Shown here: positions 626-60,895 of the stretch, in pieces
Position numbering within the stretch: position 1 is the stretch's first letter
Layout: each line of letters starts with the position of its first letter
Source: Eledone cirrhosa
Taxonomy: Eukaryota
Assembly (NCBI GenBank): GCA_964016885.1
Contig: OZ024759.1
Coordinates: 4,402,001 to 4,466,000 of the forward strand
Direction: 5' to 3'
Length of the DNA stretch: 64,000 bases
Translations under genes and position numbers: made by a program
Notes under the pieces: generated by a model
Databases searched by the model: none
What the model was told of the DNA's origin: nothing
Seen by the model: only the letters and a program-made list of their open reading frames with translations

Positions 626-672
<47 letters not shown>

Positions 673-674
<2 letters not shown>

Positions 675-788
675 AGTTGAAATAAAATGAAAACGAAATT
701 TCATTTCTCACTCTTAGTACGGCACTTACTTAAATGTAAGTATGTGTGTATACGTACATACATATATGTATACAGACGTACAGTAGCA

Positions 789-854
<66 letters not shown>

Positions 855-1101
855 TATACATGCACGTATCAGTTTAGCGGACGCTTATTATAACGCCGCT
901 TTGTTCATTTGTAAACAAACTGAACAGCCTGAATTTTATCCCGTATGGTGTTAAGGCAACCACGTCACCTTTTTGTTCAACACTGCCTTAACACCATACG
1001 GCATAAAATTCAGGCTGTTCAGTTTGTTTACAAATGAACAAAGCGGCGTTATAATAAGCGTCCGCTAAACTGATACGTGCATATATGTATGTGTACCTGT
1101 A

Positions 1102-1140
<39 letters not shown>

Positions 1141-1197
1141 GCATGCTACTGTACGTCGGTATACATATATGTATGTACGTATACACACATACTTACA
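673..1197. mobile_element. Penelope-like non-autonomous repeat (family 1), fold-back copy
   Basis: 673-985 matches 43578-43872, which carries a hammerhead motif. 984-1197 is the reverse complement of ~727-958, giving a long inverted repeat with a ~25 nt spacer. Confidence 0.65.
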
Positions 1198-1269
1198 TAT
1201 ATATATATATATTTATATATATAATAGTATAACACTAGTTATATCCGTAGTAGTAGAACACTCAGTCCA

Positions 1270-1965
1270 TCAGCTCGGTTTAAATGAGATTATACGAAAA
1301 GGGAAACATCATTATCATCATTGTCGTTTAACGTCTATCTTCCACGCGAGCATGGGTTTACAATTATAAACAATTATACAAGTACACATACACAGAAGAA
1401 GTTCTTTTCAAAGGGGAAGCAACTCACACTGTAATTTACGAAGCCTTAGTCACTTCTAACCGACCAAATCAATAACAAGAGGTTAAATCCTATGTAGGTA
1501 TGGCGGAGGGCCAGTTTAAAGAATGCTTCCTGAATCAACTGTCGACATTCAGACACCTGGACAAACGATCGTCCACGAAGCTCACAAGTCACATGTGGTC
1601 TCTCAAGACGCAGGCGTGGATTACTCCATTCAATGGAAAGTTATTACTGAGTCTATACGGAAATGGGATTCGTCTTGTGGGCTGTGCATTGAAGAAAGAA
1701 TCAATATCCTGAGTAGTTACGTAATAGTGCTTGTCTAAATTCAAGAATTTAAAAGCTCCAAACTGACTACTGGATGTAACTTCTAGACCGAATACCATAA
1801 ATAACTTATTGTATTCTGAGCTTTCGCTGTTGCCTCTAATGTGAGTTGCCTTCCCTTTGAGAAGAACTTCTGCACATGTGTATTTGTATAATTGTCTCCC
1901 TTTCCATATAATCTCATTTGAACTGAGCTAATGATCCAACTTAGGTGAAACAAATTGTTTTCGGA
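1270..1965 (+). mobile_element. Degenerate Penelope-like element: GIY-YIG endonuclease remnant flanked by inverted terminal segments
   Basis: Frameshifted translation VIYEALVTS..KSYVGMAEGQFKE..STKLTSHMWSLK..DYSIQWKVI..CGLCIEE resembles the C-terminal GIY-YIG domain of PLEs. 1270-1430 is inverted relative to 1840-1930. A degenerate hammerhead lies at 1922-1964. Confidence 0.7.
1922..1964 (+). ncRNA. Degenerate type-I hammerhead ribozyme (family 3)
   Basis: ctgag-CTAATGA-tccaacttaggt-GAAA-caaattg-TT-ttcgg. The core has G>A (CTAATGA instead of CTGATGA). The inverted partial copy near 1268-1290 reads ccgagCTGATGg on the minus strand. Confidence 0.5.
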
Positions 1966-5849: not shown

Positions 5850-6000
5850 ATTTGAAGCCAAGGGTGATTATAGATGAGACTGGGTATATCCAAATCAGGA
5901 ATGCCAAATACTTTATCAATCTTTTGAATGAGGCCGTTAGTACAACCAATGTCTGCAGTAATTAGTTTAGCTTGGACACCGGCACCATCAACATAACGAT
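5850..6000 (-). CDS. Internal exon of a fasciclin (FAS1)-domain protein
   Basis: Acceptor ttctgtctccacag and donor gtaaaa. Encodes [34 protein letters not shown], matching the FAS1 H2 motif (DI.atNGvIh.IDkV). Confidence 0.85.
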
Positions 6001-6319
6001 CTGTGGAGACAGAAATTATAAAACAACAATGTCTTAGCAATGATTTAACACGTGTGTATGTGTACGAATGTGTGAGTGTGTGTGCATATGAGTGTCTATA
6101 TGTATATGTGCGCATGTGTACATGTGTTTATGTGTGTCAACAAGAATATGTATCTGTGTGCATATGTATATTTGTGTGTGTGTGTGTGTGCGTATGTGTC
6201 TATGTGTGTTGTGTGTCTATGTGTGTGTGTCTATGTGTCTACGTTTATGTGTCTCCATGTATATGTGTATGTGTGAGTATGTATGTGTGTCTAAGTATAT
6301 ATGTGTCTGTGAGTGAGCG

Positions 6320-30300: not shown

Positions 30301-33300
30301 GTCTGTGTGTCTACAATGCCTTTGTCTACAGTGTCTGTGTGTCTACAATGTCTGTGTCTACAGTGTCTGTGTGTCTAAAATGTCTACAGTGACTGCGTGT
30401 CTACAGTGTCTGTGTGTCTACAATGTCTGTGTGTCTACAGTGTCTGTGTGTCTACAGTGTTTCTGTGTCTACAGTGTCTGTGTCTACAATGTCTGTGTGT
30501 CTACAGTGTCTGTGTCTACAGTGTCTGTGTGTCAAAAATGTCTGTGTCTACAGTGACTGTGTGTCTACAGTGTCTGTGTGTCTACAATGTTTGTGTGTCT
30601 ACAGTGTCTGTGTGTCTACACTGTCTGTGTCTACAATGTCTGTGTGTCTACAGTGTCTGTGTCTACAGTGTCTACAGTGTCTGTGTCTACAGTGTCTGTG
30701 TCTACAGTGTCTGTGTGTCTACAGTGTCTGTGTGTCTACAATGTCTGTGTTTCTACAGTGTCTGTGTGTCTACAGTGACTGTATATACAACGTATGTATG
30801 TCTACAGCGTCTGTGTGTCTACAGTGTCTGTGTGTCTACAATGCCTGTGTCTACAGTGTATGTGTGTCTACAGTGTCTGTGTCTACAGTGTCTGTGTCTA
30901 CTGTGTCTACAGTGTCTGTGTCTACAGTGTCTGAGTCTACAATGTCTGTGTGTCTATAGTGTCTGTGTGTGTACAGTGTCTGTGTCTACAGTGTCTGTGT
31001 CTACAGTGTCTGTGTCTACAGTGTCTGAGTCTACAGTGCCTGTGTCTACAGTGTCTGTGTGTCTACAGTGTCTGTGTCTACAGTGTCTGAGTCTACCATG
31101 TCTGTGTGTCTACAATGCCTGTGTCTACAGTGTCCGTGTGTCTGAGTCTACAATGCATGTGTGTCTACAGTGTCTGTGCCTACAATGCCTGTGTCTACAG
31201 TGTCTGTGTGTCTACAGTGTCTGTGTCTACAGTGTCTGAGTCTACAATGTCTGTGTGTCTACAGTGTCTGTGTCTACAATGTCTGTGTCTACAGTGTCCG
31301 TGTGTCTGTCTACAGTGTCTGTGTGTCTACAGTGGCTGTGTCCACAGTGACTGTGTGTCTACAGTGTCTGTGTGTCTACAATATGTGTCTACAGTGTCCG
31401 TGTGTCTGTCTACAGTGTCTGTTTGTCTACAGTGTCTGTGTCTACAGTGTCTGTGTCTACAGTGTCTGTGTCTACAGTGTCTGTGTCTCTACATTGTCTG
31501 TGTGTCTACAATGTCTGTGTCTACAGTGTCTGGGTGTCTACAGTGTCTGTGTGTCTGTGTGGCTACAATGTCTGTGTGTCTACAGTGTCTGTGGTTCTAC
31601 AGTGTCTGTGTGTCTGTGTGGCTACAATGTCTGTGTGTCTACAGTGTCTTAGTCAACAGTTTCTGTGTCAACAGTGTCTGTGTCTACAGTGTCTGTGTGT
31701 CTACAATGTCTGTGTCTACAGTGTCTGTATGTCTACAGTGTCTGTGTGTCTACAGTGTGTGTGTGTCTACAGTGTCTGTGTGTCTACAGTGTCTGTGTGC
31801 CTACAATGTCTGTGTGTCTACAGTGTCTGTGTCTACAGTGTCTGTGTGTCTACAGTGTCTGTGTGTCTACAGTGTCTGTGTGTCTACAGTGTCTGTGTCT
31901 ACAGTGTCTGTGTCTACAGTGTCTGTGTGTCTACAGTGTCTGTGTGTCTACAGTGTCTGTGTGCCTACAATGTCTGTGTGTCTACAGTGTCTGTGTCTAC
32001 AGTGTCTGTGTCTACAGTGTCTGTGTCTACAGTGTCTGTGTGTCTACAATGTCTGTGTGTCTACAATGTCTGTGTGTCTACAGTGTCTGTGTGTCTACAG
32101 TGTCTGTGTGTCTACAGTGTCTGTGTGTCTACAGTTTCTGTGTCTACAGTGTCTGAGTCTACAGTGCCTGTGTCTACAGTGTCTGTGTGTCTACAGTGTC
32201 TGTGTCTACAGTGTCTGAGTCTACAATGTCTGTGTGTCTACAATGCCTGTGTCTACAGTGTCCGTGTGTCTGTGTCTACAGTGTCTGAGTCTACAATGCA
32301 TGTGTGTCTACAGTGTCTGTGCCTACAATGCCTGTGTCTACAGTGTCTGTGTGTCTACAGTGTCTGTGTCTACAGTGTCTGAGTCTACAATGTCTGTGTG
32401 TCTACAGTGTCTGTGTCTACAATGTCTGTGTCTACAGTGTCCGTGTGTCTGTCTACAGTGTCTGTGTGTCTACAGTGTCTGTGTCCACAGTGACTGTGTG
32501 TCTACAGTGTCTGTGTGTCTACAATATGTGTCTACAGTGTCCGTGTGTCTGTCTACAGTGTCTGTTTGTCTACAGTGTCTGTGTCTACAGTGTCTGTGTC
32601 TACAGTGTCTGTGTCTCTACATTGTCTGTGTGTCTACAATGTCTGTGTCTACAGTGTCTGGGTGTCTACAGTGTCTGTGTGTCTGTGTGGCTACAATGTC
32701 TGTGTGTCTACAGTGTCTGTGGTTCTACAGTGTCTGTGTGTCTGTGTGGCTACAATGTCTGTGTGTCTACAGTGTCTTAGTCAACAGTTTCTGTGTCAAC
32801 AGTGTCTGTGTCTACAGTGTCTGTGTGTCTACAATGTCTGTGTCTACAGTGTCTGTATGTCTACAGTGTGTGTGTGTCTACAGTGTCTGTGTGTCTACAG
32901 TGTCTGTGTGCCTACAATGTCTGTGTGTCTACAGTGTCTGTGTCTACAGTGTCTGTGTGTCTACAATGTCTGTGTCTACAGTGTGTGTGTCTACAGTGTC
33001 TGTGTGTCTACAGTGTCTGTGTGTCTACAGTGTCTGTGTCTACAGTGTCTGTGTCTACAGTGTCTGTGTGTCTACAGTGTCTGTGTGTCTACAGTGTCTG
33101 TGTGCCTACAATGTCTGTGTGTCTACAGTGTCTGTGTCTACAGTGTCTGTGTCTACAGTGTCTGTGTCTACAGTGTCTGTGTCTACAGTGTCTGTGTGTC
33201 TACAATGTCTGTGTGTCTACAATGTCTGTGTGTCTACAGTGTCTGTGTGTCTACAGTGTCTGTGTGTCTACAGTGTCTGTGTGTCTACAGTTTCTGTGTC

Positions 33301-33330
33301 TACAGTGTCAGTGTCTACAGTGTCTGTGTC
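6320..33330. repeat. ~27 kb satellite array of mixed 17-bp (gtctacagtgtctgtgt) and 15-bp (gtctacagtgtctgt) units with higher-order structure
   Basis: Continuous tandem array. Variant units recur at spacings of ~5.0 kb, ~2.06 kb and ~1.13 kb. Confidence 0.97.
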
Positions 33331-34650
33331 CCACTGTCCCTCTATATTGTCCGACTCTAAATGCTCTTCCTTACTGTCGAAAGCATCAAGTAATATGCTT
33401 TGAAATTTATTTCTGGCTGTGGGGTCCTTTAGCTTCCATATTTTTCTCTTGAGGATAGTCCTCTTCTGCTGTCGAGTACGTCTCGTCCTGACTATGAGGT
33501 CGCTAATTATCAGTCTATGTTGGGAGGTGCTTTCTTCATGGGGGAGGGATTTAGTGTTTACAACAGACACTCTGTCACGTCTTCTGGTAAGGATATAATC
33601 TACCTGGCTGGTATGTTCCCCTGATCTGTAGATGATCAAGCGATTGTCTCGTTTTTTGAAGTTAGTGTTACAGATAGTTAGCCTATTTGCGTCACAGAAT
33701 TCCAGGGTTCTGGAGCCTTCCTCATTTCTAGTACCAAACCCATAGCCTCCGTGGATTCCGTCATAACCGTCACAATGTTGTCCAATGTGACCATTTAGGT
33801 CGCCAGCAATAGTTATATAGTCACTGTCGGTTATTTGGGAGGTAGTGAGCATCAGTGTCTCATAGAATCTGTCTTTTATAGCGCCAGGCAGTCCGGATTG
33901 GGGCGCGTACGCAGATATTACTGTCACAGTAGTACTATTTTGAACAAGTCTTATTTTAATTATTCTGTCATTCACTCTATTTACGTCTATTATCTTATCC
34001 ACCCATTTTTCTGCTAACATGATTCCTACCCCACCCAGCCCATTGTCATTTCCCAGCCAGAAAAGCTTATAGCATCGTTTTTACCCACAATGAATCTAGC
34101 AGACCCGCCCCTCCACCTGATCTCTTGGATACAGCAAACATCAACCTCCTTACGTTCAAGCATTTCTACAACCTCGTTAGAGCGGCCTTTTAAGGTGCCT
34201 ACATTCATGGTACCAACTCTGAAGTTTTGGATTGCGTTTGGTGGGTAGAGCGCAGGGAGGGGTGAGGGGGATGGGGTTGGGGTTATGTTGGCCATCCGCG
34301 GCCGCAACAAAGAGGAGGAGGCCTTGCCCTTTCGTCCGGCAGCATGACGTGAATTTGTCGTTATCTTTGGCATTGTCTTCGAGTGTCCAGATTCTTCAGA
34401 CTCTCCAGAAATTACTTAGTCCATCCATCATATCGAAAAGTAACCAGAAGTGATAGCATAGGCCGTTGACTTGTGATTGGTCCAAATAATAAAGGTGGAG
34501 AGTGGGGGAGGGAGGGGTATGGGGTAGTTAGCGAGGAGAAGATTATTTAGAACAGTCAGACAGAATTATAGAATAGCAATTATGAAGTAGGATTTGGATT
34601 CTGGGCGATTATAGATATATGGATGAATGAACTGAAGGGTGGGAGACAAG
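33331..34650 (-). mobile_element. RTE-clade LINE, 5' portion (APE endonuclease; BCNT/CFDP2-like), frameshifted and cut off by the satellite
   Basis: RVGTMNVGTLKGR..CCIQEIRW, then after a frameshift at ~34080 GVGIMLAEKW..ISAYAPQ..IAGDLNGHIG..SQVDYIL..SQHRLI. These are APE endonuclease motifs. Confidence 0.9.
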
Positions 34651-34698: not shown

Positions 34699-34742
<44 letters not shown>

Positions 34743-34745
<3 letters not shown>

Positions 34746-35220
34746 GGAAAAGATGAAACGATATTTCATTTCCCACTCTTAGTACGGCTGTTACTTAAAT
34801 ATAAGTATGTACACGTACACACATATATGCATACCGACGTACAGTAGTATGTATATATATATATACATACATGCACACATATATATATGCACATATGGAT
34901 TCACCGAATATTTATTATAATGCTCGGTGTGTTTGTAAACAAACATCCCGTATTAAGCCGTAGTGTCTAGCAACCACCGTTGCTCGTTTGTAGCCCGTTA
35001 ATATGCATAAGGTAAGTATATACGTTCAACAATCTGGCAGGAAGGTATACGTTGCTGACGATAGCTAACAAGCTTGAAACTAGTACAGCATTCCTTTGTC
35101 AGTGTTGAACAAACGAGCAACGGTGGTTGCTAGACACTACGGCTTAATACGGGATGTTTGTTTACAAACATTATAATAAATATTATAATAAATATTCGGT
35201 GAATCCATACGTGCATATAT
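34743..35220. mobile_element. Penelope-like repeat (family 1 relative) with internal inversion and hammerhead
   Basis: Homologous to 43578-43990. Arms ~34880-34990 and ~35108-35220 are inverted. Confidence 0.7.
35049..35091 (+). ncRNA. Minimal type-I hammerhead ribozyme (family 1)
   Basis: gttg-CTGACGA-t agct aaca agct t-GAAA-ctag-TA-cagc: intact core, stem II, palindromic minimal stem III, GUA cleavage triplet and short stem I. Confidence 0.75.
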
Positions 35221-35779
35221 ATATTAATCTGTTATTTTAATAAATATTTTCTCTACAGTTCTTATATATTTGATATATATTTATCCTTATTGAGCCCTCT
35301 TTGGATTTTAGTCTTCAATTTTATTATTATTACTATATATATATATATATATACACATATAATTGTGTATTCACACATTATCTTAGTAATGATATAATAA
35401 TTTTAGTAAATTGTTCAAAATTCTTCATTAACCATTTTGGTAGAAACCCAGCCAAAATAGGTTCTCGTTATATGGAAATGGTTCCTATCTAAATTAAAGT
35501 CTTCCAACGAAATTCTATATAACAACCATATGTTATGTTACTATGTTAGTAATTAACTAACAATTGTGATAAATAGCCCAAATTATTCATAATTAATTGA
35601 AATACGAGGTTCATAATTATAATAAAATCTTCGAACAGGCTACGAAGCCGGTAAACCTTAAAGGTACGCAACACACACATCGCTATAGCGTTTCACCAGC
35701 CAATTCATTCCTCAATCATTACATAGATGTGTGTGTATGTAATAAATATTTTGTATTGTGTCTATTTATGAATATGTAT

Positions 35780-40353: not shown

Positions 40354-40514
40354 TAATTGCCTTATGTTGCTTTATTACTTTACTACTATATATACGTATA
40401 TGTAAGGTTCATATGAATTATCTAAGACTGAGTCTTACACATACACACATGTATGTGTGTGTGTGTGTATGTGTATGCATGTGTATATATATGTATGTAT
40501 ATGTATGTATGTAT

Positions 40515-41523
40515 GTAGCAGCAAGTGCCCACAAAATACTAGCTCTTTCAATTGCGCAGAGGGTTCTATAGAAATAGTGGACAGCTTCCGTTACCTGGGC
40601 GATAAAATCAGCAGTGGGGGAGGGTGCTCTGAAAGTACTGTAGCTAGAGTCAGAACTGGTTGGAAAAAGTTCAGAGAGCTTATACCACTATTAGCTGCTA
40701 AAGGGTTCTCCCTAAAAATGAAAGGCAGGTTGTACGATGCCTGCATACGAACAGCAATGTTGCATGGTAGTGAGACCTGGGCATTGTGTGCAGAGGATAT
40801 ACGCAGACTAGAGAGGAACGAAGCTTGCATGCTCCGCTGGATGTGTAACAGTAATATACGTGAACGGCAAAGCATAAACGAACTAAGGAAAAAATTAGAG
40901 ATAAGAGGGATCAGATGTTGTTTACTCGAGAGAAGGCTGCGTTGGTATGGACACGTGATGCGCATGAAAGTCGATAGCTGTATTACAAAGTGCAGGGCAA
41001 TAAAGATAGACGGTAGCCACGGAATAGGCAGACCTAGAAAAACATGGGATGAGCTGATAAACTCCGACCTCACACACTTACACCTCTCCAAGACAATGTC
41101 ACTGGACCGTGACCTTTGGCGGTACTCAGTAACAGAGAAGACCCGCCTTGCCAGTAGGCATATCTAACAAAATACACCCCTCCCGCCGCCACCCCCACCC
41201 CATCCACACCACCCCGTTCTATGTAAAGTTATGTTGGTGCCGCGCCATCCAGGCCGAAACAAATGAGATCGTGTAGGTGTCACGACAAAAAAAACACACA
41301 GTCCACGCTGTAATGTGGCCGTGTAGGCAACACGGTAAAAACCTCCCAGACCCACACTGTAAATGTGGTTGGTGTTAGGAAGGGCATCCAACTGTAGAAA
41401 ACCTGCCAGACAGTCCTATGCGAGCAAGACAATCACTCTTGCCTCAAGTGGGACTACCCCCGTCCAAACCCATGCAAGCGTGGAACACGGACGTTAAACG
41501 TTGATGATGATGATGATGATGAT
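40515..41523 (+). mobile_element. 5'-truncated RTE LINE (C-terminal ORF, 3'UTR and (GAT)n tail)
   Basis: EIVDSFRYLG..LHGSETW..RRLRWYGHVMR..GRPRKTW motifs; stop at 41167; ends in gatgatgat repeats. Confidence 0.92.
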
Positions 41524-42829: not shown

Positions 42830-43142
42830 TAATTGCCTTATCTTGTTTATTACATAATAATATTTTACATGGTAGACATTATTTGAATTTTGAAAATGTG
42901 AGACCAGAGAAATTGCTTCATGTGACACTGTAAGAAAACATTAAAAAATGAAATGTATATCTTCTTCTTTATCATTAAGTATGTCAGCAGCAGCAGCACC
43001 ACACACACACACACATATATATATACAGAGAGAGAGAGAGAGAAGAGAGAGAGTAGTTAATAATAAATACAAAGACCAAAATCTAGAGAGGGCTCAATAA
43101 GATAAGAGTTTTATGTATATATATATATATACATATATATGT

Positions 43143-43470
43143 ATCATCATCATCATTTTACGTCCACTTTTCCCTGCTTGCGAGGGTGGGACGGAAACTG
43201 ATTCTGGTTTGATTTCTACAGCTGGATGCCCTTCCTACCACCAACCTTATTTACAGTGAGTGCTGGGTGCTTTTTTGCTGTGGCACCTCCACGACCACTT
43301 TGCAGTGGAATGATAGAGGCCCAAGTCCCTATCATCTCATTTCTACAGCTGAGTAAACTGGAGCAATGTGAAATAAAGTGTCTTGCTCAAGGAAACAACA
43401 CATCACCCGGTTTGAGAATTGAACTCACAACCTTTCGATTGCAAGGCCAATGCTCTAACCACTAAGCCAT
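43143..43470 (-). mobile_element. SINE family A, full length
   Basis: Reverse complement of 2010-2340 with a (gat)n tail. Confidence 0.85.
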
Positions 43471-43577
43471 AGAGAGAGAGAGAAGTGAGAGAGTAGTTAA
43501 TAATAAATAGAAACACCAAAATCTGGAGAGGGCTCAATAAGATAAGAGTTATATATATATATATGTATATATATATA

Positions 43578-43695
43578 TAAGTTGAAAAAAATGAAAACGA
43601 AATTTCATTTCTCACTCTTAGTATGGCACTTACTTAAATGTAAGTATGTATGTATACGTACATACATATATGTATACGGACGTACAGTAGCATGC

Positions 43696-43728
<33 letters not shown>

Positions 43729-43990
43729 TACAGGTACACATACATATATGCACGCATCAGTTTAGCGGACGCTTATTATAACGCCGCTTTGTTCGTTTGT
43801 CAACAAACTGAACAGCCTGAATTTATGCCATACGGTGTTAAGGTAACCACGTCACCTTTTTGTTCAACACTGACACAGGAACGATGTACTAGTTTCAAGC
43901 TTGTTAGCTATCATCAGCACCGTTTACCTATCTGCCAGATAGTTGAACGTTCGAAAGTATATTCTTTCCTTATCAAAATTAACGGCTGAG
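43578..43990 (-). mobile_element. Penelope-like non-autonomous repeat (family 1)
   Basis: Homologous to 673-985 and 34743-35220; contains an internal (TA)n tract and a hammerhead. Confidence 0.7.
43880..43924 (-). ncRNA. Minimal type-I hammerhead ribozyme (family 1)
   Basis: Minus strand reads aacggtg-CTGATGA-t agct aaca agct t-GAAA-ctag-TA-catcgtt, with a 7-bp stem I, intact core and GUA site. Confidence 0.85.
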
Positions 43991-44500
43991 CAGCCTAATT
44001 TGCATATTGAGTGAGTTAAATCGGTCAGGCATCAAATTTGTGTTCTTTTATTTTGTTTTTGATATGCTACCAAGGATTGGGGGTTAGAGTTGTGTTTGCA
44101 TTCCTGTCCAGTTGTTATATGGTTTGGATGGCTATTCTAGTAGGCAGATATGAAGCAGGAGGTGCTATTGTTGCTGACATACTAGGGATGGTAAGTAGGT
44201 TAAGGTATCAAATTACCAGAGGGGTCAGTCATCACCCCACCCCCCGTTCATATATGTTAAAGAATTTGTTCGAATAATCTACTTATTTTTTTGTTTATTT
44301 GAACTTTGTTTATTTGTTTGAACTACATAGCTATATATCCAGGCTGTGTATTATTAGAGAAGGTGATTCTTGTGTAACTATGTAAGGATGCATTAAATGT
44401 ATAGATTTAGTCATTATGTTCAGCTCTAGGTGGAAGTTAGCATGGAATGTGTTAACTATCTAATCTAAGGAAAGTTTTAGATATTTTATGCATACAAGTA

Positions 44501-44708
44501 TTAACTCTTTAGCATTTACATTACTCTGTAATGTATTTTCTCTGTAAAGTCTTTACCTCACATAATATCAAATCAACAAGATTTTGATATTATTTATTTT
44601 GAGAACAATACCTTAACATAAGTATGAGCAGCCAGTTACGGCTGGTTTGAACAGAAAAAGGTGAGAGAATTCTGGCCGGATATGGCCGGTTTAAATGCTA
44701 AAGGTTAA
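44501..44708. mobile_element. piggyBac-like MITE (unexpanded copy)
   Basis: ttaa-ctctttagcattta ... taaatgctaaaagg-ttaa: terminal inverted repeats inside TTAA. Confidence 0.75.
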
Positions 44709-45906: not shown

Positions 45907-46041
45907 CCCTAGAAGCAGGGGCAGTCTTATGTGGTTTGATGTAAAAAAAATTAAGGACTCATTGATTCTCAACATTTAAACAGTGTTGTTGTATGAAGGG
46001 ATGGTTGTGTAAACAACGCTATCTGGTGGTAGGTTACTAAC

Positions 46042-46179
46042 CTGTCTGGCAGTTACTTCCCTTGTAACCAACTGCACATCCTCCACTTGAACATATCCCT
46101 GACACTATATTACATTTACTGTTGTCTGCACAGTGGCACATATACTTGCAGTTAGGACCAAATGAACCAGATGCACACA
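46042..46179 (-). CDS. EGF-like (MEGF/laminin-EGF type) exon 4
   Basis: 138 nt, phase 1-1, ag/gttagt. Encodes VCASGSFGPNCKYMCHCADNSKCNIVSGICSSGGCAVGYKGSNCQT. Confidence 0.92.
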
Positions 46180-46266
46180 CTGCAATGGAATAAAGCAACA
46201 ACAACAGAAAACATGAGGATGAAGAAGAAAAAGAGACAATTATACAGACAGATGCACATGCATAGT

Positions 46267-46515
46267 GGAGGTGTGTGGCCTAGTGGTAAGGGTGTTGGAC
46301 TTGCAATCATAATGTCATGGGTTCGATTCCTGGGCTGAGTTGTGCGTTGTATTCTTGAGCAAAACACTTCATTTCACGCTGCTCCAGTATACTCAGCTGA
46401 AAACGAGTACCAGCAATAGCTGGGGTTTTGACCCCACGATGGATTGGCGTCCTGTCCAGGGAGGAGTCTTGTACTCTCAGTCATTTCACACCATAAAAAT
46501 GGGATAAGCACCTAC
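46267..46515 (+). mobile_element. tRNA-derived SINE
   Basis: TGGCCTAGTGG and GGTTCGATTCC boxes; a related inverted copy lies at ~52460-52705. Confidence 0.75.
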
Positions 46516-46570
46516 TATTGTCTTGACACAATATATTATGTTACAAAAAAAGCTATACTACACCACTTAC

Positions 46571-46708
46571 CTGTCTGACAGTTGCTACCTTCATAACCAG
46601 CAGCACATCCTCCACTTGAACACACACCTGTCTGTTTGTTACACCTGCTGTTGTCAGCACAGGGGCATGTGTTGCCACAGTTTGGTCCAAATTTCCCCTC
46701 TGGACATT
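46571..46708 (-). CDS. EGF-like exon 3
   Basis: 138 nt, phase 1-1, ag/gtaagt. Encodes KCPEGKFGPNCGNTCPCADNSRCNKQTGVCSSGGCAAGYEGSNCQT. Confidence 0.92.
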
Positions 46709-46820
46709 CTACAATGAAAGATCATGAGAAAACCTCTGCTCTTTTATCTCACTAAACATTTGTAAAAAAAATGAGGTTCAACTGAGTAAGAATACAAAGG
46801 ATTAATAGGATTAATCAACC

Positions 46821-47040
46821 CTTACAATACTAAGGACCTTTGTTAAGTTATGTTCCAAATACCATCTTAACCGTTTTGATACCAAACTGCCAGATGTGGA
46901 CCTTGTTCTTACAATACTAACAACCTTTGTTAAGTTATGTTCCAAATACCATCTTAACCCTTTTGATACCAAACTGCCAGATGTGGACCTTGTTCTTACA
47001 ATACTAACAACCTTTGTTAAGTTATGTTCCAAGCACCATC
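46821..47040. repeat. 87-bp tandem repeat, ~2.5 copies
   Basis: cttacaatactaa..ttgttaagttatgttcc recurs at ~46821, 46908 and 46995. Confidence 0.85.
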
Positions 47041-47414
47041 TGAGACCACTCTTGGCAGGTCTGTTGGATGTTGGCTTACCTGGGGCTAAACAACATCAAC
47101 AATACCTACTACAATATGCAATACCACCACCACTACCACTATCACCAGCAGCAGCAGCACCACCAACACCACCACCACACCAACAACAACAAAACCAGCA
47201 TCCTCCTCCTCACCACCACCACAACTACCTCCACTCCACCACCACCATCACCACCTACACTCCACTCCCACTATAACCACGACAGCCACCTACACTCCAC
47301 CAACACCACCACCACCACCACCACCACCATCACCACCACCACCACCATCATCATCATCACCATCACCACCACCACCACCACCACCAGTACCACCATCATC
47401 ATCACCACCACCAT

Positions 47415-48730
47415 CTGGGAGATCCAAAATACTGTTGTGGTCCCATTCCATTACTTCACCAATCTTGTAGACCCTAAATATTGTAATGGTCACTGTCCTT
47501 TCTCTTCCACCAACCTGAGAGACCCTAAATACTGTTGTGGTCCATGTCCCTTCTCTTCCACCAATCTGGGAGTCCCTAAATACTGTCATGGTTCCTGTTC
47601 CTCCCTCCAGTAATCTTGGAGACCCTAAATACTGTTGTAGTACCTTCCCATTCCTTCCACTAATTTTGGAGACCCTAAATATTGCAATGGTTACTGTCCC
47701 TTCCTTCCTTCAATCTAGGGGACCCTAAATACTGTTCTGGTCCCTGTTCCTTCTCTTCCACCAATCAGTGAGTCCCTAAATACTGTCATGGTTCCTGTCC
47801 CTTACTTCTCTTCCACCAATCAGTGAGTCCCTTAATACTGCCGTAGTCCCTGTCTCTTCTCTTCCACCAATCAGTGAGTCCCTTAATACTGTTGTGGACC
47901 CTGTCTCTTCTCTTCCACCAATCAGTGAGTCTCTTAATACTGTTGTGGTCCCTGTCTCTTCTCTTCCACCAATCAGTGAGTCCCTAAATACTGTCGTGGT
48001 CCCTGTCTCTTCTCTTCCACCAATCAGTGAGTCTCTTAATACTGTTGTGGTCCCTGTCTCTTCTCTTCCACCAATCAGTGAGCCCCTAAATACTGCCGTA
48101 GTCCCTGTCTCTTCTCTTCCACCAATCAGTGAGTCCCTTAATACTGTCGTGGTCCCTGTCTCTTCTCTTCCACCAATCAGTGAGTCCCTTAATACTGTTG
48201 TGGTCCCTGTCGCTTCTCTTCCACCAATCAGTGAGTCCCTAAATACTATCATGGTCCCTGTCTCTTCTCTTCCACCAATCAGTGAGTCTCTTAATATTGT
48301 CGTGGTCCCTGTCTCTTCTCTTCCACCAATCAGTGAGTCCCTAAATACTGTTGTGGTCCCTGTCTCTTCTCTTCCACCAATCAGTGAGTCCCTAAATACT
48401 GTTGTGGTCCCTGTCTCTTCTCTTCCACCAATCAGTGAGTCCCTTAATACTGTCGTGGTCCATGTCTCTTCTCTTCCACCAATCAGTGAGTCCCTTAATA
48501 CTGTTGTGGTCCCTGTCTCTTCTCTTCCACCAATCAGTGAGTCCCTAAATACTATCATGGTCCCTGTCTCTTCTCTTCCACCAATCAGTGAGTCCCTAAA
48601 TACTGTCGTGGTCCCTGTCTCTTCTCTTCCACCAATCAGTGAGTCCCTAAATACTGTCGTGGTCCCTGTCTCTTCTCTTCCACCAATCAGTGAGTCCCTA
48701 AATACTGTCGTGGTCCCTGTCTCTTCCCTC
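47415..48730. repeat. 51-bp minisatellite, ~26 copies, intronic
   Basis: Unit gtccctgtctcttctcttccaccaatcagtgagtccctaaatactgtcgtg; degenerate on the left, homogeneous on the right. Confidence 0.95.
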
Positions 48731-48758
48731 TCTAAAGGGTAAACAGATAAAAACTTAC

Positions 48759-48896
48759 TTGACTGGCAGCTGTGTCCCCTGTAACCAGGTGAGCACCTTC
48801 CATTGATGCAGATACCATTGTCAGAGTAACATTTGCCATTATTCAGACAGTGGCACTTCTTCACACAGTTGACACCAAACATGCCATGGGCACATC
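48759..48896 (-). CDS. EGF-like exon 2
   Basis: 138 nt, phase 1-1, tcag/gtaagt. Encodes GCAHGMFGVNCVKKCHCLNNGKCYSDNGICINGRCSPGYRGHSCQS. Confidence 0.92.
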
Positions 48897-49002
48897 CTGA
48901 GAAAACAACTTCAATATGTAATTACTGTATTTCCTGACGCCGAAGACACTTCGTCCTCGAGGACACACCCTAATTCTGACAACCAAAAATTTGAAAAAAA
49001 AT

Positions 49003-49396
49003 AATTGTTTCTACTTTTGGCACAAGGCCAGCAATTATCCCAATGTATTACTGGTACTTTATTTTATCGACCCCGTAAGGATGAATGGCAAAGTTAACCT
49101 CGGCGGGATTTGAACTCAGTCCATAAAGGGACGTAACTCTTTGCTGCAAAGCATGGCGTCAGACCGATACTGCCAATCCACCGCTCTTTGAATTTGAAGA
49201 AAAATAATTGTTTCTACTATTGGCACAAGGCCAGCAATCACCCAGTACATTACTGGTACTTTATTTTATCGACTCCGTAAAGATGAAAGGCAAAGTTAAC
49301 CTTGGCAGGATTTGAACTCAGAATGGCAAGTGCTGTAACTCTATGCGTCAAAGCATGGCGTCCGACCCTCTACCGATACTGCCAATTCACCGCCCT
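49003..49396 (-). mobile_element. Two tandem SINE family B copies
   Basis: 49003-49185 and 49204-49396 are both homologous to 50779-51003 in reverse. Confidence 0.75.
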
Positions 49397-50447
49397 TTGA
49401 AGAAAAATAATAAACAACTTTCGGCCTCCAGGATGCATGGTAGATTTTTGAGACTTATTTTAGTAAAAGTAGCGTCTTTGACGCCGGGAAATACGGTGAG
49501 TTTAATTAATTCAAATTTCTGAGTTGTTATCTTTCATCCTTTGAGTGTATCCCATTTACAATAGTAACTCTATAACCCTGCATGTTGTAGAAAGAGCCTA
49601 AAATAGTTTGGCATCAAGAAGGGCATCCAGCAGCAAAATAATGCCTCAATACTATATATCATCATCATCATTGGATGCGCAATGTCAATGTGCATGAATG
49701 AGCAAGCATAGTTGTGTTTGCATTCCTGTCCAGTTGTTATATGGTTTGGATGGCTATTCTAGTAGGCAGATATGAAGCAGGAGGTGCTATTGTTGCTGAC
49801 ATACTAGGGATGGTAAGTAGGTTAAGGTATCAAATTACCAGAGGGGTAAGTCATCACCCCACCCCCCGTTCATATATGTTAAAGAATTTGTTCGAATAAT
49901 CTACTTATTTTTTTGTTTATTTGAACTTTGTTTATTTGTTTGAACTACATAGCTATATATCCAGGCTGTGTATTATTAGAGAAGGTGATTCTTGTGTAAC
50001 TATGTAAGGATGCATTAAATGTATAGATTTAGTCATTATGTTCAGCTCTAGGTGGAAGTTAGCATGGAACGTGTTAACTATCTAATCTAAGGAAAGTTTT
50101 AGATATTTTATGCATACAAGTATTAACTCTTTAGCATTTACATTACTCTGTAATGTATTTTCTCTGTAAAGTCTTTACCTCACATAATAATCTCACATAA
50201 TATCAAATCCACAAGATTTTGATATTATTTATTTTGAGAACAATACCTTAACAAAAGTATGAGCAGCCAGTTACGGCTGGTTTGAACAGAAAAAGCACCA
50301 CCTACACTCCACTCCCACTATAACCATGACAGCCACCTCCACTCCACCACCACCTACACTCCACTCCCACTATAACCACGACAGCCACCAACACTCCACT
50401 CCCACTATAACCATGACAACCACCTACACTCCACCACCACCACTCAC

Positions 50448-50582
50448 CTTTACAAGTGTTATTCACATCAATATATCCATCTTTACATCCAGTCACACAT
50501 TTGCCAGTCAATTGATCACATGTCTTTCTGCAGTTGTTGCACTCTTCTTTACAATTTCTTCCATAGAATCCAGGGAGACATT
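50448..50582 (-). CDS. EGF-like exon 1
   Basis: 135 nt, phase 1-1, ctag/gtgagt. Encodes CLPGFYGRNCKEECNNCRKTCDQLTGKCVTGCKDGYIDVNNTCK. Confidence 0.92.
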
Positions 50583-55717: not shown

Positions 55718-58700
55718 CTACAGGCTGATATAGAGAGAAGACCCATTCACTCTGGCCATTCTCCCTACTTTCACCCACCTTTCATAAAACTTGCTGGGGT
55801 AGAGCACCTCTCTCTACATTCTGATCCTTCTTTTAAAATGGTATTTGAAAAAGAGGACCAGTTGTTGGCCGGAGAGAAAGGTGTCTGACCTCAGCCCTTT
55901 CAGCCTCGTCCACCATACAACTTCTTTAGCCATGGCTATCACACAGAGAAAAACCGCCTCTCCTTCGTTTTTGAAAGGGGGAGGCGCTTTGATCGTGACA
56001 ATGGACTCGGTGGTCAACCGGATTGGTTCCACCCTCAACAGTAGTCGTTCCACATAGCCCCACAGGTCAGCAATGCCTGGGCAGTGTACGAATGCGTGCG
56101 CAACGGTTTCGTCATCATGCACGCATCTCGGACAGATCTTATTCAAAGGATCTCTACCTAGGCTCCCATGCCTGTGGAGCTTGTCTCGAACGGGTAGAGC
56201 CCCTCGGTAGCACTGCCAAGCCAGGGACTTTTGGAAGTTGTCCATCGGTCCAGGGCCAAACGTCCTACCGAACAGACTGGCCAGTTCATCTTCCTCTATG
56301 CCTAGAGCTTCTCCGAGAGCATCGTCGCACCTGCTGCGTACCAACCCTCTATAGAATGTCGAGGTGGAGTCTCCACTGATTGCCGGGTCCGCTTTCCAGA
56401 GGGCCGTGAGCGCCTGGGCACATTCAATGTGCCAGTCGCCCACTTTTCTCGGTCTTTGCTTGACCCAGGATTGCAGCTCGGTGAGCGAGACGAGTCTGGG
56501 AAAGGCTCGCCTCACAAACGGGGCCCACACCGGTTGACCGGTGAGGAATACCTGGAGGTGCCGTAGCCTTAATGCGTATTTACGCATCTGTAGCCACGGC
56601 ATCCCCAGCCCTCCTTTCGAAGGGTGTTGACAGCAGATGGATCTCCTCACCAAAGGGGTCCGCTTGTTCCAAAGAAATTGGAACAGCGCGCACTCCATTT
56701 TGGCGAGTCTTTTCACTGGGCAAGGCACGACGGTCAAGCGGTAGTAGATGACGGATGCTATATAAGTATTCGCCACCTCCGCTCGACCTTTCAGGGATAG
56801 TTTGCACTGGGCCCACTTCTGGGTGAGTGCAAACAGCCTGGCCGTTACCTCGTTCCAGTTTTTCTCCACCTGGAGGTCTGGTCCGAACCAGACCCCAAGC
56901 AGCTTCACCGGGCCCTCCGTCCAGCGTCCGAGGACGTCGTTGGAGGGCATCGGTTTGCCTCTCCATGTTCCGAGTTGCAAACCGACGGACTTGTCCCGGT
57001 TCAGCTTGGCTCCTGTAAACCTTTCATATTCCTCCAGTAAGGTGCCGATCTCACCGATTTGCGAGGTTTTCGACACCATTACTGTCACGTCATCGGCGTA
57101 GGCCGACGCCGCTTTCTGCAATCCCGGTTCCAAAGGGATGCCCTGCAACCGCTCCAACTTCCGCAGTAGTGGCTCAAGAGCCAGCACATACAGTAGGGAG
57201 GAGAGAGGGTATCCCTGTTGGATGGATCGCATGATTTGGAATGGCTCCGAGAGGTGGCCGTTCACCTTGACCCTTGAGCAGACGTTGCTGCTGTGCATCG
57301 CAGCAATCCAACCCCTGAAAACGGGTCCGAAGCCTGCCGCCGCGAGCACCGCATCCAGGTAACGATGGTCAACCCTATCGAAAGCTTTAGATTGATCCAA
57401 GTTGATCAGGGCCCCACCCCAAAGCCGGTTTCATTCCCTACCCTCTCTATGATGTATCGCATAAGGTGGAGATTGTCGTGAATGGACCTGGACGGGATTG
57501 TGCATGTCTGCGCTTCTCCCACCAGGTTTCCAACGACAAGCGCCAACCTCTTCGCTAACACCTTGGCCAAAATCTTTAACTCTGTATTTAGCAGAGTTAT
57601 GGGCCTGAAGTTATTTATGTCATCCCCCTTGTTCTCATCCTTCCTCACCAGCGTAACTACGCCCTTGGTCACAGAACTGGGAATTCTCCCGTTCTGCTGC
57701 CAGTTGCAGTAGACAGCTTCGAAGATATCGGAGAACAAGTCCGGCATCGCTACATATAGCTCGTATGGTAGACCATCGAGACCCGGGGATTTGCGTTTGC
57801 TGCATTGGCTCAGCGCCGCCCCTATCTCAGCAGCTGAAATCGTCCTTTCGCAGGACTTCGCCTCCGCGTCCGAGAGGCGCGGCAGACCGTCGAGGTATGG
57901 ATTGAAATCCATAGTCTCACCCGGCGCGCCGCCCCTCTCGAACAGTCATGCAAAGTGCCACTGAAAGGCCGCACACATCTGCCCAGGTTCAAGGATCACA
58001 CGCCCATCCTGGTCCTTCAAAGACCGAATCGTGGACTTGTTACCACTTTTTGCCTCTGTCACTCGGGCCCAGCTCACAGCTTTGGCTCCCTCATTACCCA
58101 GAGCACGTATTTTACTCCTGACAACGCAGCCTTCATGCTTCACCTCAAAGAACTGGTCTAAGGCCATTCTTGATGCCAGCACGCCGGCTACATTGCCACT
58201 CCTAATCGCCTCATCTACTCTATCTACTAATTCCCTTTCCGTCTTGTTCCTATCCCTTGCTAATTCCTGACTAAAACCTATCGATTCTATTCTAATTGCT
58301 CTCTTAAGAGAGATTCACCACCTGTTGTTGACAATTGCCCCTGTCAAACTCTGCTTAACTAACGTGCTAATCCGTTTACTGTAAGCTTTGCTTCTCGGTA
58401 AGGACAAGTTCAGCTTCCAGTAACCGGGTCCCTGTCTATGGGTTCTATCAAGGTTGGCTATGCAGGTCACTAACTTGTGATCCGAATAGTCAACCATGAA
58501 CATTTTTGGACAGCTAAATGTGTCCCTATCCTTCTCTCTAACTAGGACCCTATCTAGGTACGACCTAGATGTTCCACTGCGATTGGTCCACGTCCATAGT
58601 GGTACAGTCGGAAAATCTAGTCGATATCTATCGGCCAGGTCAAATCGGCCGATTAACCTTTTGAGGCTTTTACACCCCCCTCTATTGGCACATGCCCCTA

Positions 58701-59162
58701 CATAGTCCCAACGTGCATCCAGGATACCATTCCAGTCCCCCACTAAAAGCAAGGAGCGGGACGTTCCCAGAAAAGTTTCCAGACGTTGGAAGTATTCCGG
58801 CCGCGCTGCCCAAAAAGGGGCGTACACAGCTATTAGTCTAAGGGCTCCACTTTCACTACTGCCGACGTCTAAAACCACCAGTCGACCCTCCGGGTCCAGG
58901 TGCACCTTCTGTATGGCGAGGCCCAGGTGTTTTCGCAGCAGAACAACAACTCCACCCCCACCCCCCCACCCGGTTGACAGAGAGATGCGAAGATCTCAAA
59001 GTCGTCGAAGAGGGGCGCCAGTTGGTGCTCGCTGCTGATCCTGGACTCGCAAATAGCCATTACATCCATTCTATGCGACCTGAGATCGTTTAAAAGTTTG
59101 CCTTGTTTCCAAGACAGTCCCAGGCCGCGTACATTCAGACACCCAACTCTTATATCAGCCAT
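55718..59162 (-). pseudogene. Tx1/L1 ORF2 (endonuclease-reverse transcriptase), disrupted
   Basis: Motifs CLNVRGL, AVYAP, GDWN, YLDR, SDHK, KSPGLDG, FRPITLLN, DQSKAFDRV, QG.PLS, YADD and CPRC..ETVAHAFVHC. Frameshifts at ~58950 and ~57410; in-frame stops at ~58315, ~57946 and ~55814. Confidence 0.9.
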
Positions 59163-59183
59163 GTTGGTTAAAAGAGGAAGGAC

Positions 59184-60895
59184 CTACCTGTTCGGCTCCT
59201 GAGGAGCAGGTTGCACAATATCCATGGGCGTATTGGAGGGGTTGTTTGGTGGGGTGTTGTTCTGTGGTGGAGTGGGGGTGTTTGGTGAGGTGTGGGTGGG
59301 GAAACGTTTCAAGAGGACGCGGTTATAGGGTCGAGTACATGTTTTCCCCACGTCCTCAGGAAAGTTCTCTCTTAGTTTTGCATAGGTGTCCATTGGGAGT
59401 CTTATCATTTTTAAATGCGGTTTGTTGGCCGCGCTTGCAAAGAATTGCCCTTCAGTTTCCACCGAAGGGTCTTTGTGTATTGTTTTTACTAGTTCTTTGT
59501 TATTTGTGTTAATGTATGTATACTGTTTTATTTGTGTTGTGTTTGTTTGTTGTTCTTGTGTGTGCTTACGTTTTGTTGTATGTGTTATGTTTTGGGGTGG
59601 GGCGGATTTTGTTTGTTCTGTTTGTTTTGTTTTTGTTGGTGGTTGTGTGTTTGTTTCGTTTATGTTCGAGTGGTGCTTTCTTTTTTTCCTTTTTACAGGT
59701 TGGAAGGGTTCCTCTTCTTCGTCACTAGGTGCCGTTTCAGCTGGGTCCTCGTCCGTGTTGTCGGGTAGTGGTGTATTTTGGGGTTTTGTTGTATTTGTGT
59801 GTGTTTTGGGAGTTGTTTTGGGTGGGGCCGTGTCTTGTGTTATTTTTCCGTGTTGTTTTTGTTGTTGTTGTGGTGGTGGCGGTGGTGGTGTGTGGGGTGT
59901 AGGCAAAAGAGCCTTTTTTTTGTCAATTGAGGACAAGCAGCCCTTAGATGACCCCTGCTTGAACAGTAGTAACATATGGGCCTCCTACCCTCGGCTGAAA
60001 TGTATATAAATGTTTCTCCATCGAGGGACACCCTCTGTGGTATTCTAGCTATTCGTTCTGATCTCATTTGGACCAGAACCTCCACGCTCAAACCGCCGAA
60101 AACGTCTGTGGTGACTTCTCCTACTGAGAGGATTCCGTCCTCGTCTTCTAAAAATCCTGTTAGTACCCAGGAAATGCATGCATTTGGCCGGATTCCGGAG
60201 ACCCTTATCTTCTGCGTTCTTTTCCCTAAATATGTGGGGAAAAATGTATGTAGCTTGGAAACAATTGGCGCCACAGAGTATTTCCTGGCCGTCAATTGAT
60301 CCTTCATTAGGACCGTTATATTCCCATAGAGTGGCCCTTTTTGTATGAACGATATATCACTCCACACATTTTTTAGGACCAGCTCAATCTCTTTTTGGGA
60401 TAATTGAGCTGGTTTCCTTGTTATGTTGGAAATTGTTCTGAAAGATATCGTTCTTAGCGTCGTGTCTCTTTTGATTTCTTGTGGGGAGGTGATTGTGAAG
60501 TCTCCTCCTTCTTTGAAAGTTACATACTGTTTCGCTTCCTTCATCTTTTCTCTCAGAGTTGTAATGTCCAGTTGCTTGCAGGTTTGTGTTTTCCGGACCG
60601 CCTGTGCAAAGGAGGCACCAGTAGTGGGTTCGCTTTGTTTGGTGTTATCGTTATTTTTTCCTTGGTTGGTGTTGTGACTATTGCTGTTATTGTCGTTGTT
60701 GTTTTTGTCTGCGTTTATGTGACTTTCTGGGTTTTCACCCATTTTTACAAATTTTTCTTTTAATTCCGTGTTCCATGTTTCTTTTGCAGAAGTGAGGAGG
60801 GAAGACTTAGAGCCTTGTGGTTCTAGCTTCTCTGTATCACCTTTCTTAGGGGGCGTGGCTTTCACGTTAGGATGAGATGTGAAAATTCCGTCCAT
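59184..60895 (-). pseudogene. Tx1/L1 ORF1 (gag-like zinc-knuckle protein) with one frameshift
   Basis: Starts MDGIFTSH; contains SFAQAV and CYYCSSRGHLRAAC; frameshift in an A-run at ~59915; Pro/Thr-rich tail; stop ~21 nt before the ORF2 ATG. Confidence 0.82.

Follow-up and report, generated by a model that had tools for sequence, protein, structure and literature searches.

A type I hammerhead ribozyme motif with a U-U base of helix II in a repeat that likely represents a non-LTR retrozyme

Introduction

A segment of 45 bases on the minus strand of the window, the 64,000-nucleotide stretch of DNA analysed here, was flagged in an initial annotation as a hidden hammerhead ribozyme, which raises the question of whether the motif is genuine, what kind of element carries it, and how such an element might cleave and spread. 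Published systems provide the background. Non-LTR retrozymes are described in PMC7229834 as head-to-tail units of 150-450 bp with a GC content below 45-50% and no gene; those of the axolotl include HHR_Amex1, with a 1-bp helix III and 6% cleavage as a monomer and much better cleavage as a dimer, and HHR_Amex2, with a U10.1-U11.1 mismatch and 22% monomer cleavage, which is also better as a dimer. In Penelope-like elements, inverted pairs of truncated copies have been described, as has a tail that follows a fixed end. For one such element from a lizard, PMC11167929 describes an internal start of reverse transcription and a ribozyme that depended on protein and could be dispensed with for insertion in vitro.

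Results

Genomic context of the window

The window is animal-like in its DNA, in which EGF-repeat exons occur together with tRNA-derived SINEs, satellites, and pieces of LINEs, and it may resemble a cephalopod genome. On the minus strand, exons were recognised within 46040-50580 and 5852-6040: four are of EGF type and have splice signals, and a weak fasciclin-like exon (E 0.011) lies far downstream; the host exon search gave no match. A 27-kb satellite (6319-33329) has a 17-bp unit in about 1,647 copies. On the minus strand at 55814-60300 there is a long LINE that is lightly broken and contains RVT_1 and zf-RVT domains, further LINE fragments are present at 33268-34415 and 40406-41167, and a 586-bp duplication (44088-44660 and 49710-50295, 97% identity) has one of its members just upstream of the flagged repeat. 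Some 2 kb upstream of the flagged repeat itself, called copy 1, lies a minus-strand EGF-type exon with a GT donor at its end; because of this position copy 1 is probably intronic and in the sense orientation.

The hammerhead motif and its helices

The 45 bases in question form a genuine type I hammerhead motif with an intact core. The core CUGANGA...GAAA...UH with A15.1-U16.1 is present in copy 1 (Table 1), so that the CTGATGA and GAAA cores annotated on the minus strand stand, as do the AGCU arms of stem II and the CUAG mini-stem III, which was found between A15.1 and U16.1. The GUA site was also recovered, and its A17 places the predicted cut between 43887 and 43886. The helices that can be formed are an open helix I of 6 bp with an extension, a helix II of 4 bp, and a helix III of 1 bp in the monomer and 6 bp in the dimer. 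In both copies of the motif, helix I is prolonged by three outer helices, which the initial annotation had overlooked; in copy 1, positions 43927-43948 pair with 43862-43879. The stem I of 7 bp proposed earlier exists in copy 1 but not in copy 2 or in much of the family. Since U-U takes the place of the seventh pair in copy 2 and, of the summed contig depth at 43924, in 41% (sequencing run X1) and 80% (run X4), the helix I of the family is 6 bp plus a free U.

Scans with hammerhead models had been suggested at the outset. A descriptor composed after the motif had been seen, which accepts a palindromic helix III and a mispaired helix II base, matches only the cores of copy 1 (minus strand) and copy 2 (plus strand) in the window and has 0 matches in 100 block-wise dinucleotide shuffles of it. 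An Rfam scan of the window returned no hammerhead family among 124 hits at E<=10. The sense strands of the two domains (97 and 96 nt) have fold z-scores of -3.16 and -3.47, both beating all 200 shuffles, in comparison with -0.98 and -2.03 for the opposite strands.

Table 1. Coordinates of the hammerhead motif, the repeat copies, and the family C sequences in the window.
Feature	Position	Strand	Remarks
Hammerhead core span, C3 to A17 (copy 1)	43887..43917	minus	C3-A9 43917-43911; U10.1 43910; U11.1 43897
Core span, helix II part	43909-43906/43901-43898, loop 43905-43902	minus	AGCU/AGCU, loop AACA
Core span, 3' part		minus	GAAA 43896-43893 (G12 43896); CUAG 43892-43889; U16.1 43888; A17 43887
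Helix I, copy 1	43918-43923/43881-43886	minus	6 bp
Whole hammerhead domain, copy 1	43862..43948	minus	6-bp helix I, U1.7 (43880), three outer helices
Copy 1 of the repeat (family A)	43577..44030	minus	almost one full unit, short of about 12 nt of the head-to-tail linker; TTAT at the 3' end, then (TA)n
Copy 2 (family B), forward piece with hammerhead	34991..35224	plus	both ends truncated; core 35055-35085 (C3 35055, A17 35085); domain about 35024-35110
Inverted 5'-truncated partner of copy 2	34740..34990	minus	start at equivalent of 35110, 24 nt past cut; TTAT end at (TA)n
Family A piece without core	672..985	minus	start 14 nt past cut (equivalent of 43872); TTAT end at (TA)n
Family A piece, inverted relative to 672-985	986..1201	plus	head-to-head pair
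Family C, broken GIY-YIG-type endonuclease remnant of a Penelope-like element	1422..1770 (end approximate)	plus	in-frame stop 1473-1475; frameshift near 1615
Family C, degenerate hammerhead-like motif	1923..1964	plus	G5 replaced by A; U-CC-loop-GG-U; downstream of endonuclease remnant
Family C, inverted partner	1268..1430	minus	CTGATG where forward copy has CTAATG, then stops

The U-U at the base of helix II

Instead of the standard 10.1-11.1 pair, usually G-C, copy 1 has U-U. To describe variation across the repeat, we used contigs with a likeness of at least 80%, which numbered 2,352 in X1, 13 in X4, 4 in X7, and 0 in X5; parts of the stretch are present in contigs of 20 of the 24 runs listed, and the runs examined are not on record as RNA; X1 may be the run from which the window itself derives. 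Neither U10.1 nor U11.1 has a variant at 5% or more in the 2,352 X1 contigs, nor in X4 and X7, and for this reason U10.1-U11.1 is a family state and not decay. It had been claimed that the U-U is shared by both copies and by a motif at 1922, which we take to be the one at about 1923-1964; this is correct for the two copies, and indeed family-wide, but the third motif is degenerate and belongs to a different element.

The description of the ribozyme as an atypical variant cannot be maintained. Natural U10.1-U11.1 hammerheads have been in print since 2011 (Perreault et al., PMC3088659), where U-U is described as the best-tolerated mispair, and HHR_Amex2 cleaves (PMC7229834). As natural exceptions have been published, U-U is not disqualifying for a type I hammerhead; the feature is already known, and this hammerhead adds one more case to a known kind. 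Each arm of helix II (43897-43910) also lies within a 6-nt palindrome, UAGCUA or AAGCUU, and the two palindromes include both U residues. Their predicted stabilities, -5.1 and -4.3 kcal/mol, equal that of the helix III palindrome (-4.8 kcal/mol), and according to this model they could form decoy duplexes or alternative dimers.

Conservation between copies and within the family

Copies 1 and 2 stand for two subfamilies, A and B. Between them, 30/31 positions of the core span are identical, as are 49/57 of the helix I arms; the upstream and downstream flanks agree at 24/41 and 63/111 positions, and the far 3' segment at 100/123. An excess of conservation in the core over its flanks, on which the initial annotation had made its claim depend, is therefore found against the downstream flank (Fisher P=9e-6) but not significantly against the helix I arms (P=0.15). 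Nor does it appear in the raw rate of variable sites: of the 16 sites that vary at 5% or more in the repeat contigs, 2 are in the 31-nt core span and 14 in about 237 positions elsewhere, a rate that is no lower in the core. Both core-span sites, N7 (43913) and a base of loop II (43903), fall among the 5 free positions of the 31 (P=0.02), and the catalytic positions have no variant at 5% or more.

The covariation attributed to stem I is reduced to a single case. The sole two-sided change in helix I between the copies is the swap of G-U for U-G at 43920/43884, but copy 2 loses two other pairs, the fifth (C-A) and the seventh (U-U). Each letter of the swap occurs as a variant in X1, X4, and X7, linkage on the same contig lying outside the scope of the variant table.

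The repeat unit

Contig depth over the repeat drops to flank level past about 44032. The loose contig ends behind 44030/44032 (4+10 contigs in X1, 1 in X4, and 1 in X7) enter the element's own far end, an 11-nt piece of which occurs in the window only at 672 and 43577. Among the 15 loose ends listed out of 86, all six on the start side (44018-44032) carry a GCACCG/ACCGAAAA linker or its lead-in, and four at 44030/44032 run through this short linker into the element's own 3' end. Because the start-side loose ends of three runs lead into the far end of the element, the unit is arranged head to tail; the junction was found in 3 of the 4 runs, while the window has no tandem pair and no contig across two whole units was seen. 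The unit thus comprises 144 nt ahead of the cut site, 310 nt behind it, and a linker of about 12 nt, about 466 bp in all, just over the published range for retrozymes, with a GC content of 35.7%.

No convincing protein-coding gene was found in this unit, either by inspection of its reading frames (50 aa in sense, 132 and 43 aa in antisense, all of them crossing a TA/TG-rich stretch) or by tblastn with nine Penelope-like proteins, whose only match in the window is at 1395-1616 and which do not match families A and B. A linked reverse transcriptase and GIY-YIG reading frame was likewise not found at these families, in the loose ends listed or by tblastn, although with only 15 of the 86 loose ends listed the repeat may have a coding partner. 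As a circle, the unit is predicted to be 70% paired at -145 kcal/mol, against -96+/-6 kcal/mol in 30 two-base-block shuffles; this stability is owed in large part to the self-complementary TA/TG-rich stretch. The middle of the unit (43640-43760) is a conserved long hairpin and the source of spurious Rfam microRNA hits, and we rejected its interpretation as a random microsatellite.

The repeat is very common and likely moves as a non-coding retroelement, and its unit fits a non-LTR retrozyme better than the terminal repeat of a coding element. The proposal of a minimal type I hammerhead in a Penelope-like terminal repeat thus survives in part: the ribozyme is of type I, its helix III is palindromic, and a Penelope-related carrier is supported. 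However, with an extended helix I of 6 bp, a helix II of 4 bp, and a gene-less head-to-tail unit, the motif is not minimal and its carrier is probably not simply a terminal repeat.

Insertion traces

The natural 3' ends of families A and B all (3/3) read TTAT followed by (TA)n, at the same position; of the non-satellite window, 3.3% is close to a tract of this kind. At two of the three loci an inverted 5'-truncated partner is present (672-985 with 986-1201, and 34740-34990 with 34991-35224). The fixed 3' end matches the internal start of reverse transcription described for the lizard element (PMC11167929), and we infer that Penelope-like machinery may have acted on families A and B. We also considered whether truncation at 14-24 nt past the cut might prove cleavage in vivo and rejected this argument, since stalling at the long helix I is equally explanatory and copies 1 and 2 run through the ribozyme.

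Other insertions were observed near the copies. The region 609-2475 is a nested (TA)n insertion hot spot with an inverted family A pair, an inverted family C pair, and a SINE inside a split repeat that stands intact at 35217-35353. A tRNA-derived SINE (43143-43470, within 43031-43582) is enclosed by 112-bp direct repeats that are 92% identical, possibly a long target duplication, and the repeat piece of 43031-43582 ends at the (TA)n tract of copy 1, on its opposite side.

Family C and the motif at 1923-1964

The motif at 1923-1964 belongs to an element separate from families A and B, and no sequence shared between these families and family C, or with any coding element, was found. In this motif the U...U flanks a helix II of only 2 bp, and the fold z-score is +0.53. 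Since the loss of one base could yield this arrangement from a form with an unpaired U and a G-U pair, the motif lends weak support to a shared U-U.

A 49-residue piece of the endonuclease remnant has 49 relatives at E<=0.001 in an exhaustive search, whereas a word-seeded search with the remnant gave nothing and Pfam scans named no family for the remnant or its relatives. The longer relatives are proteins of 484-741 residues. In one of them (P0051), reverse-transcriptase-like, DKT, CxCX5C, and GIY-YIG-like motifs were recognised by eye, and its look-alike clusters carry RVT_1 or GIY-YIG families; the remnant in the window starts after the DKT/CxCX5C region, which is thus seen in the relatives. 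By these sequence features, the relatives appear to fit the Hydra clade of Penelope-like elements.

Searches in metagenome and viral contigs

The exact motif of the family is absent from the metagenome contigs. With a looser pattern, 108 of about 370 estimated metagenome loci gave 112 matches, of which 67 have an unpaired U and G-U, 3 an unpaired U and A-U, 7 a U-U, and 35 no helix II. Only three of the seven U-U matches have a helix I of 4 bp or more. Two of these three (L094 and L123), which are identical, look like mutated members of the G-U group. An unrelated locus (L067:595-810) holds a U-U hammerhead with 29/31 core-span identity to copy 2. This hammerhead has a 6-bp helix I of its own, its flanks are different, and short CCCTAA stretches follow it. 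Minimal hammerheads with an unpaired U and G10.1-U11.1 also form at least two abundant families in the metagenome contigs (L060, L064, L072, L076, L080, L087, L094, and L139), often within inverted repeats or as opposite-strand pairs. In viral contigs the looser pattern gave 52 loci with one weak descriptor fit, which we treated as chance.

Predicted folding of monomers and dimers

In the monomer, the helix III of copy 1 consists of one pair and CUAG, as a second pair would close a 2-nt loop, and in the best predicted fold the core CUG pairs with bases of helix III. All energies given here exclude tertiary contacts and Mg2+; under these terms the hammerhead fold of the monomer lies above the best fold by 7.5 kcal/mol in copy 1 and 9.1 kcal/mol in copy 2. 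Because the stretch from A15.1 to U16.1 is the palindrome ACUAGU, two motifs can give a helix III of 6 bp. The double hammerhead is lower in energy than two free monomers in copy 1 (-60.8 vs -59.0 kcal/mol) and higher in copy 2 (-53.0 vs -54.4 kcal/mol), and the best predicted dimer is not a hammerhead in either copy (-64.3 and -63.3 kcal/mol). The suggestion that this hammerhead probably needs a partner is supported, at the level of such models, by the palindromic helix III, and cleavage dependent on a dimer would be the likeliest mode, by analogy with HHR_Amex1 and HHR_Amex2.

Discussion

Our results make it probable that this repeat, with one type I hammerhead per head-to-tail unit, is a non-LTR retrozyme whose ribozyme would cut mainly as a double hammerhead and whose copies would be spread by Penelope-like enzymes. 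Under this proposal, tandem units would be transcribed; a single motif with its 1-bp helix III would misfold, while two motifs would pair their ACUAGU segments into a 6-bp helix III and be cut after GUA. A monomer of about 466 nt would be released and may be circularised, as in the retrozymes of coral, mussel, and axolotl. A Penelope-like reverse transcriptase and endonuclease would then nick (TA)n and begin to copy from an internal site, always 310 nt beyond the cut; the copies left behind would be solo, truncated, or inverted, as in the window. The U-U would be a tolerated weak closing pair, and a solo copy such as 43577-44030 would be nearly inert.

A more specific version of this proposal must be regarded as tentative, and we hold it to be rather doubtful: the hammerhead would be doubly locked by the U-U and the one-pair helix III, only tandem transcripts would cut, solo sense copies in introns would be harmless, and the insertions, with every Penelope hallmark (priming at a fixed internal site, 5' truncation with inversion, and (TA)n as target), would point to a helper of the Hydra clade. 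A requirement for dimers would render the probably intronic copy 1 harmless; a preprint reports that retrozymes are depleted from introns in frogs.

It is important to consider other explanations for the same observations. That the motif is a chance look-alike is already refuted by the conservation pattern: no hammerhead was reported by Rfam and our descriptor is post hoc, but the shuffles gave no match, and the motif is conserved in two families, three runs, and the unrelated metagenome locus. It is very improbable that the ribozyme is active as a monomer and rescued by a contact between its extended helix I and loop II, as in most invertebrate retrozymes. U1.7 and the last A of loop II, which would form the activating U-A contact, have no variant in the contigs, and most invertebrate retrozyme hammerheads cleave as monomers according to the literature; these, however, have a stable helix III, where in copy 1 a second pair would have to close the 2-nt loop and the predicted fold sequesters the core CUG.

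The opposite view, that the fold is kept for protein binding or packaging and that the U-U and the 1-bp helix III mark a weakened ribozyme with little or protein-assisted cleavage, is in our opinion quite unlikely. The misfolding of the monomers by 7.5-9.1 kcal/mol and the non-hammerhead best dimers agree with it, as do the low activity of Penelope hammerheads reported in the literature, even as dimers, and the protein-assisted cleavage of the lizard element (PMC11167929). Nevertheless, N7 and a loop base vary while the catalytic positions do not reach 5%, and HHR_Amex2 with its U-U and HHR_Amex1 with its 1-bp helix III both cleave, efficiently as dimers (PMC7229834). We also consider it unlikely, though less so than the weakened ribozyme, that the copies are pieces of the pseudo-LTRs of an autonomous Penelope-like element, as the initial annotation implied, and no separate non-coding retrozyme. 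Three traits are Penelope-like, namely the inverted 5'-truncated pairs, the fixed 3' end, and the targeting of (TA)n, and family C has this very layout in the window, an endonuclease followed by a hammerhead-like motif; but the start-side ends listed share one linker or its lead-in and four of them enter the element's own 3' end, which gives 466 bp with no room for an ORF, and the nine Penelope-like proteins match only outside families A and B.

The ribozyme itself is ordinary, given that its U-U closing position has been published before, and the modest added value lies in its context: an abundant retrozyme-like family missed by Rfam, whose insertions look Penelope-made. In the literature searched on hammerheads and retrozymes in octopus and cephalopods, no report of this repeat family was found; Lunse et al. 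2017, on dimeric Penelope hammerheads, may list U-U variants. A Penelope helper for retrozymes was proposed in PMC7229834 and argued from phylogeny in the preprint 10.64898/2026.07.22.740005, and a fixed priming site together with a candidate helper clade offers a concrete in vitro test. If the doubly locked reading is true, the proposed but unproven parasitism of Penelope by retrozymes becomes directly testable with one enzyme and one RNA.

Comparison with known systems

Among the systems compared, the natural hammerheads of Perreault et al. (PMC3088659) have the same U10.1-U11.1 mismatch as copy 1. The minimal Penelope hammerheads of Cervera and De la Pena 2014 (PMC4209133) are alike in being of type I, in their palindromic helix III and predicted dimer, in the occurrence of inverted close pairs, and in the U after A9. 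In their consensus, as given there, A9 is followed by an unpaired base and then by a conserved G10.1-C11.1, helix II is longer, and helix I is short. In copy 1, helix II has 4 bp and forms only in the U-U register (or as A-U with a bulge), helix I has 6 bp and is extended over a long stretch, and no linked ORF was found. The families of the Hydra clade, all of which insert in (TA)n and carry hammerheads according to Craig et al. 2021 (10.1101/2021.04.23.441226), share both features with families A and B but encode protein, which these do not. The axolotl retrozymes HHR_Amex1 and HHR_Amex2, as described in PMC7229834, resemble our repeat in their type I hammerhead, in a low-GC tandem unit a few hundred bases long, and in the use of dimers, which is predicted here, with the shared features split between them: the U-U with HHR_Amex2, and the one-pair helix III and palindromic tetraloop with HHR_Amex1. 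Here, by contrast, both weak features are combined in one motif, the unit is about 466 bp instead of 330-350, and the element, known from its DNA, shows inverted truncation of the Penelope type and (TA)n targeting.
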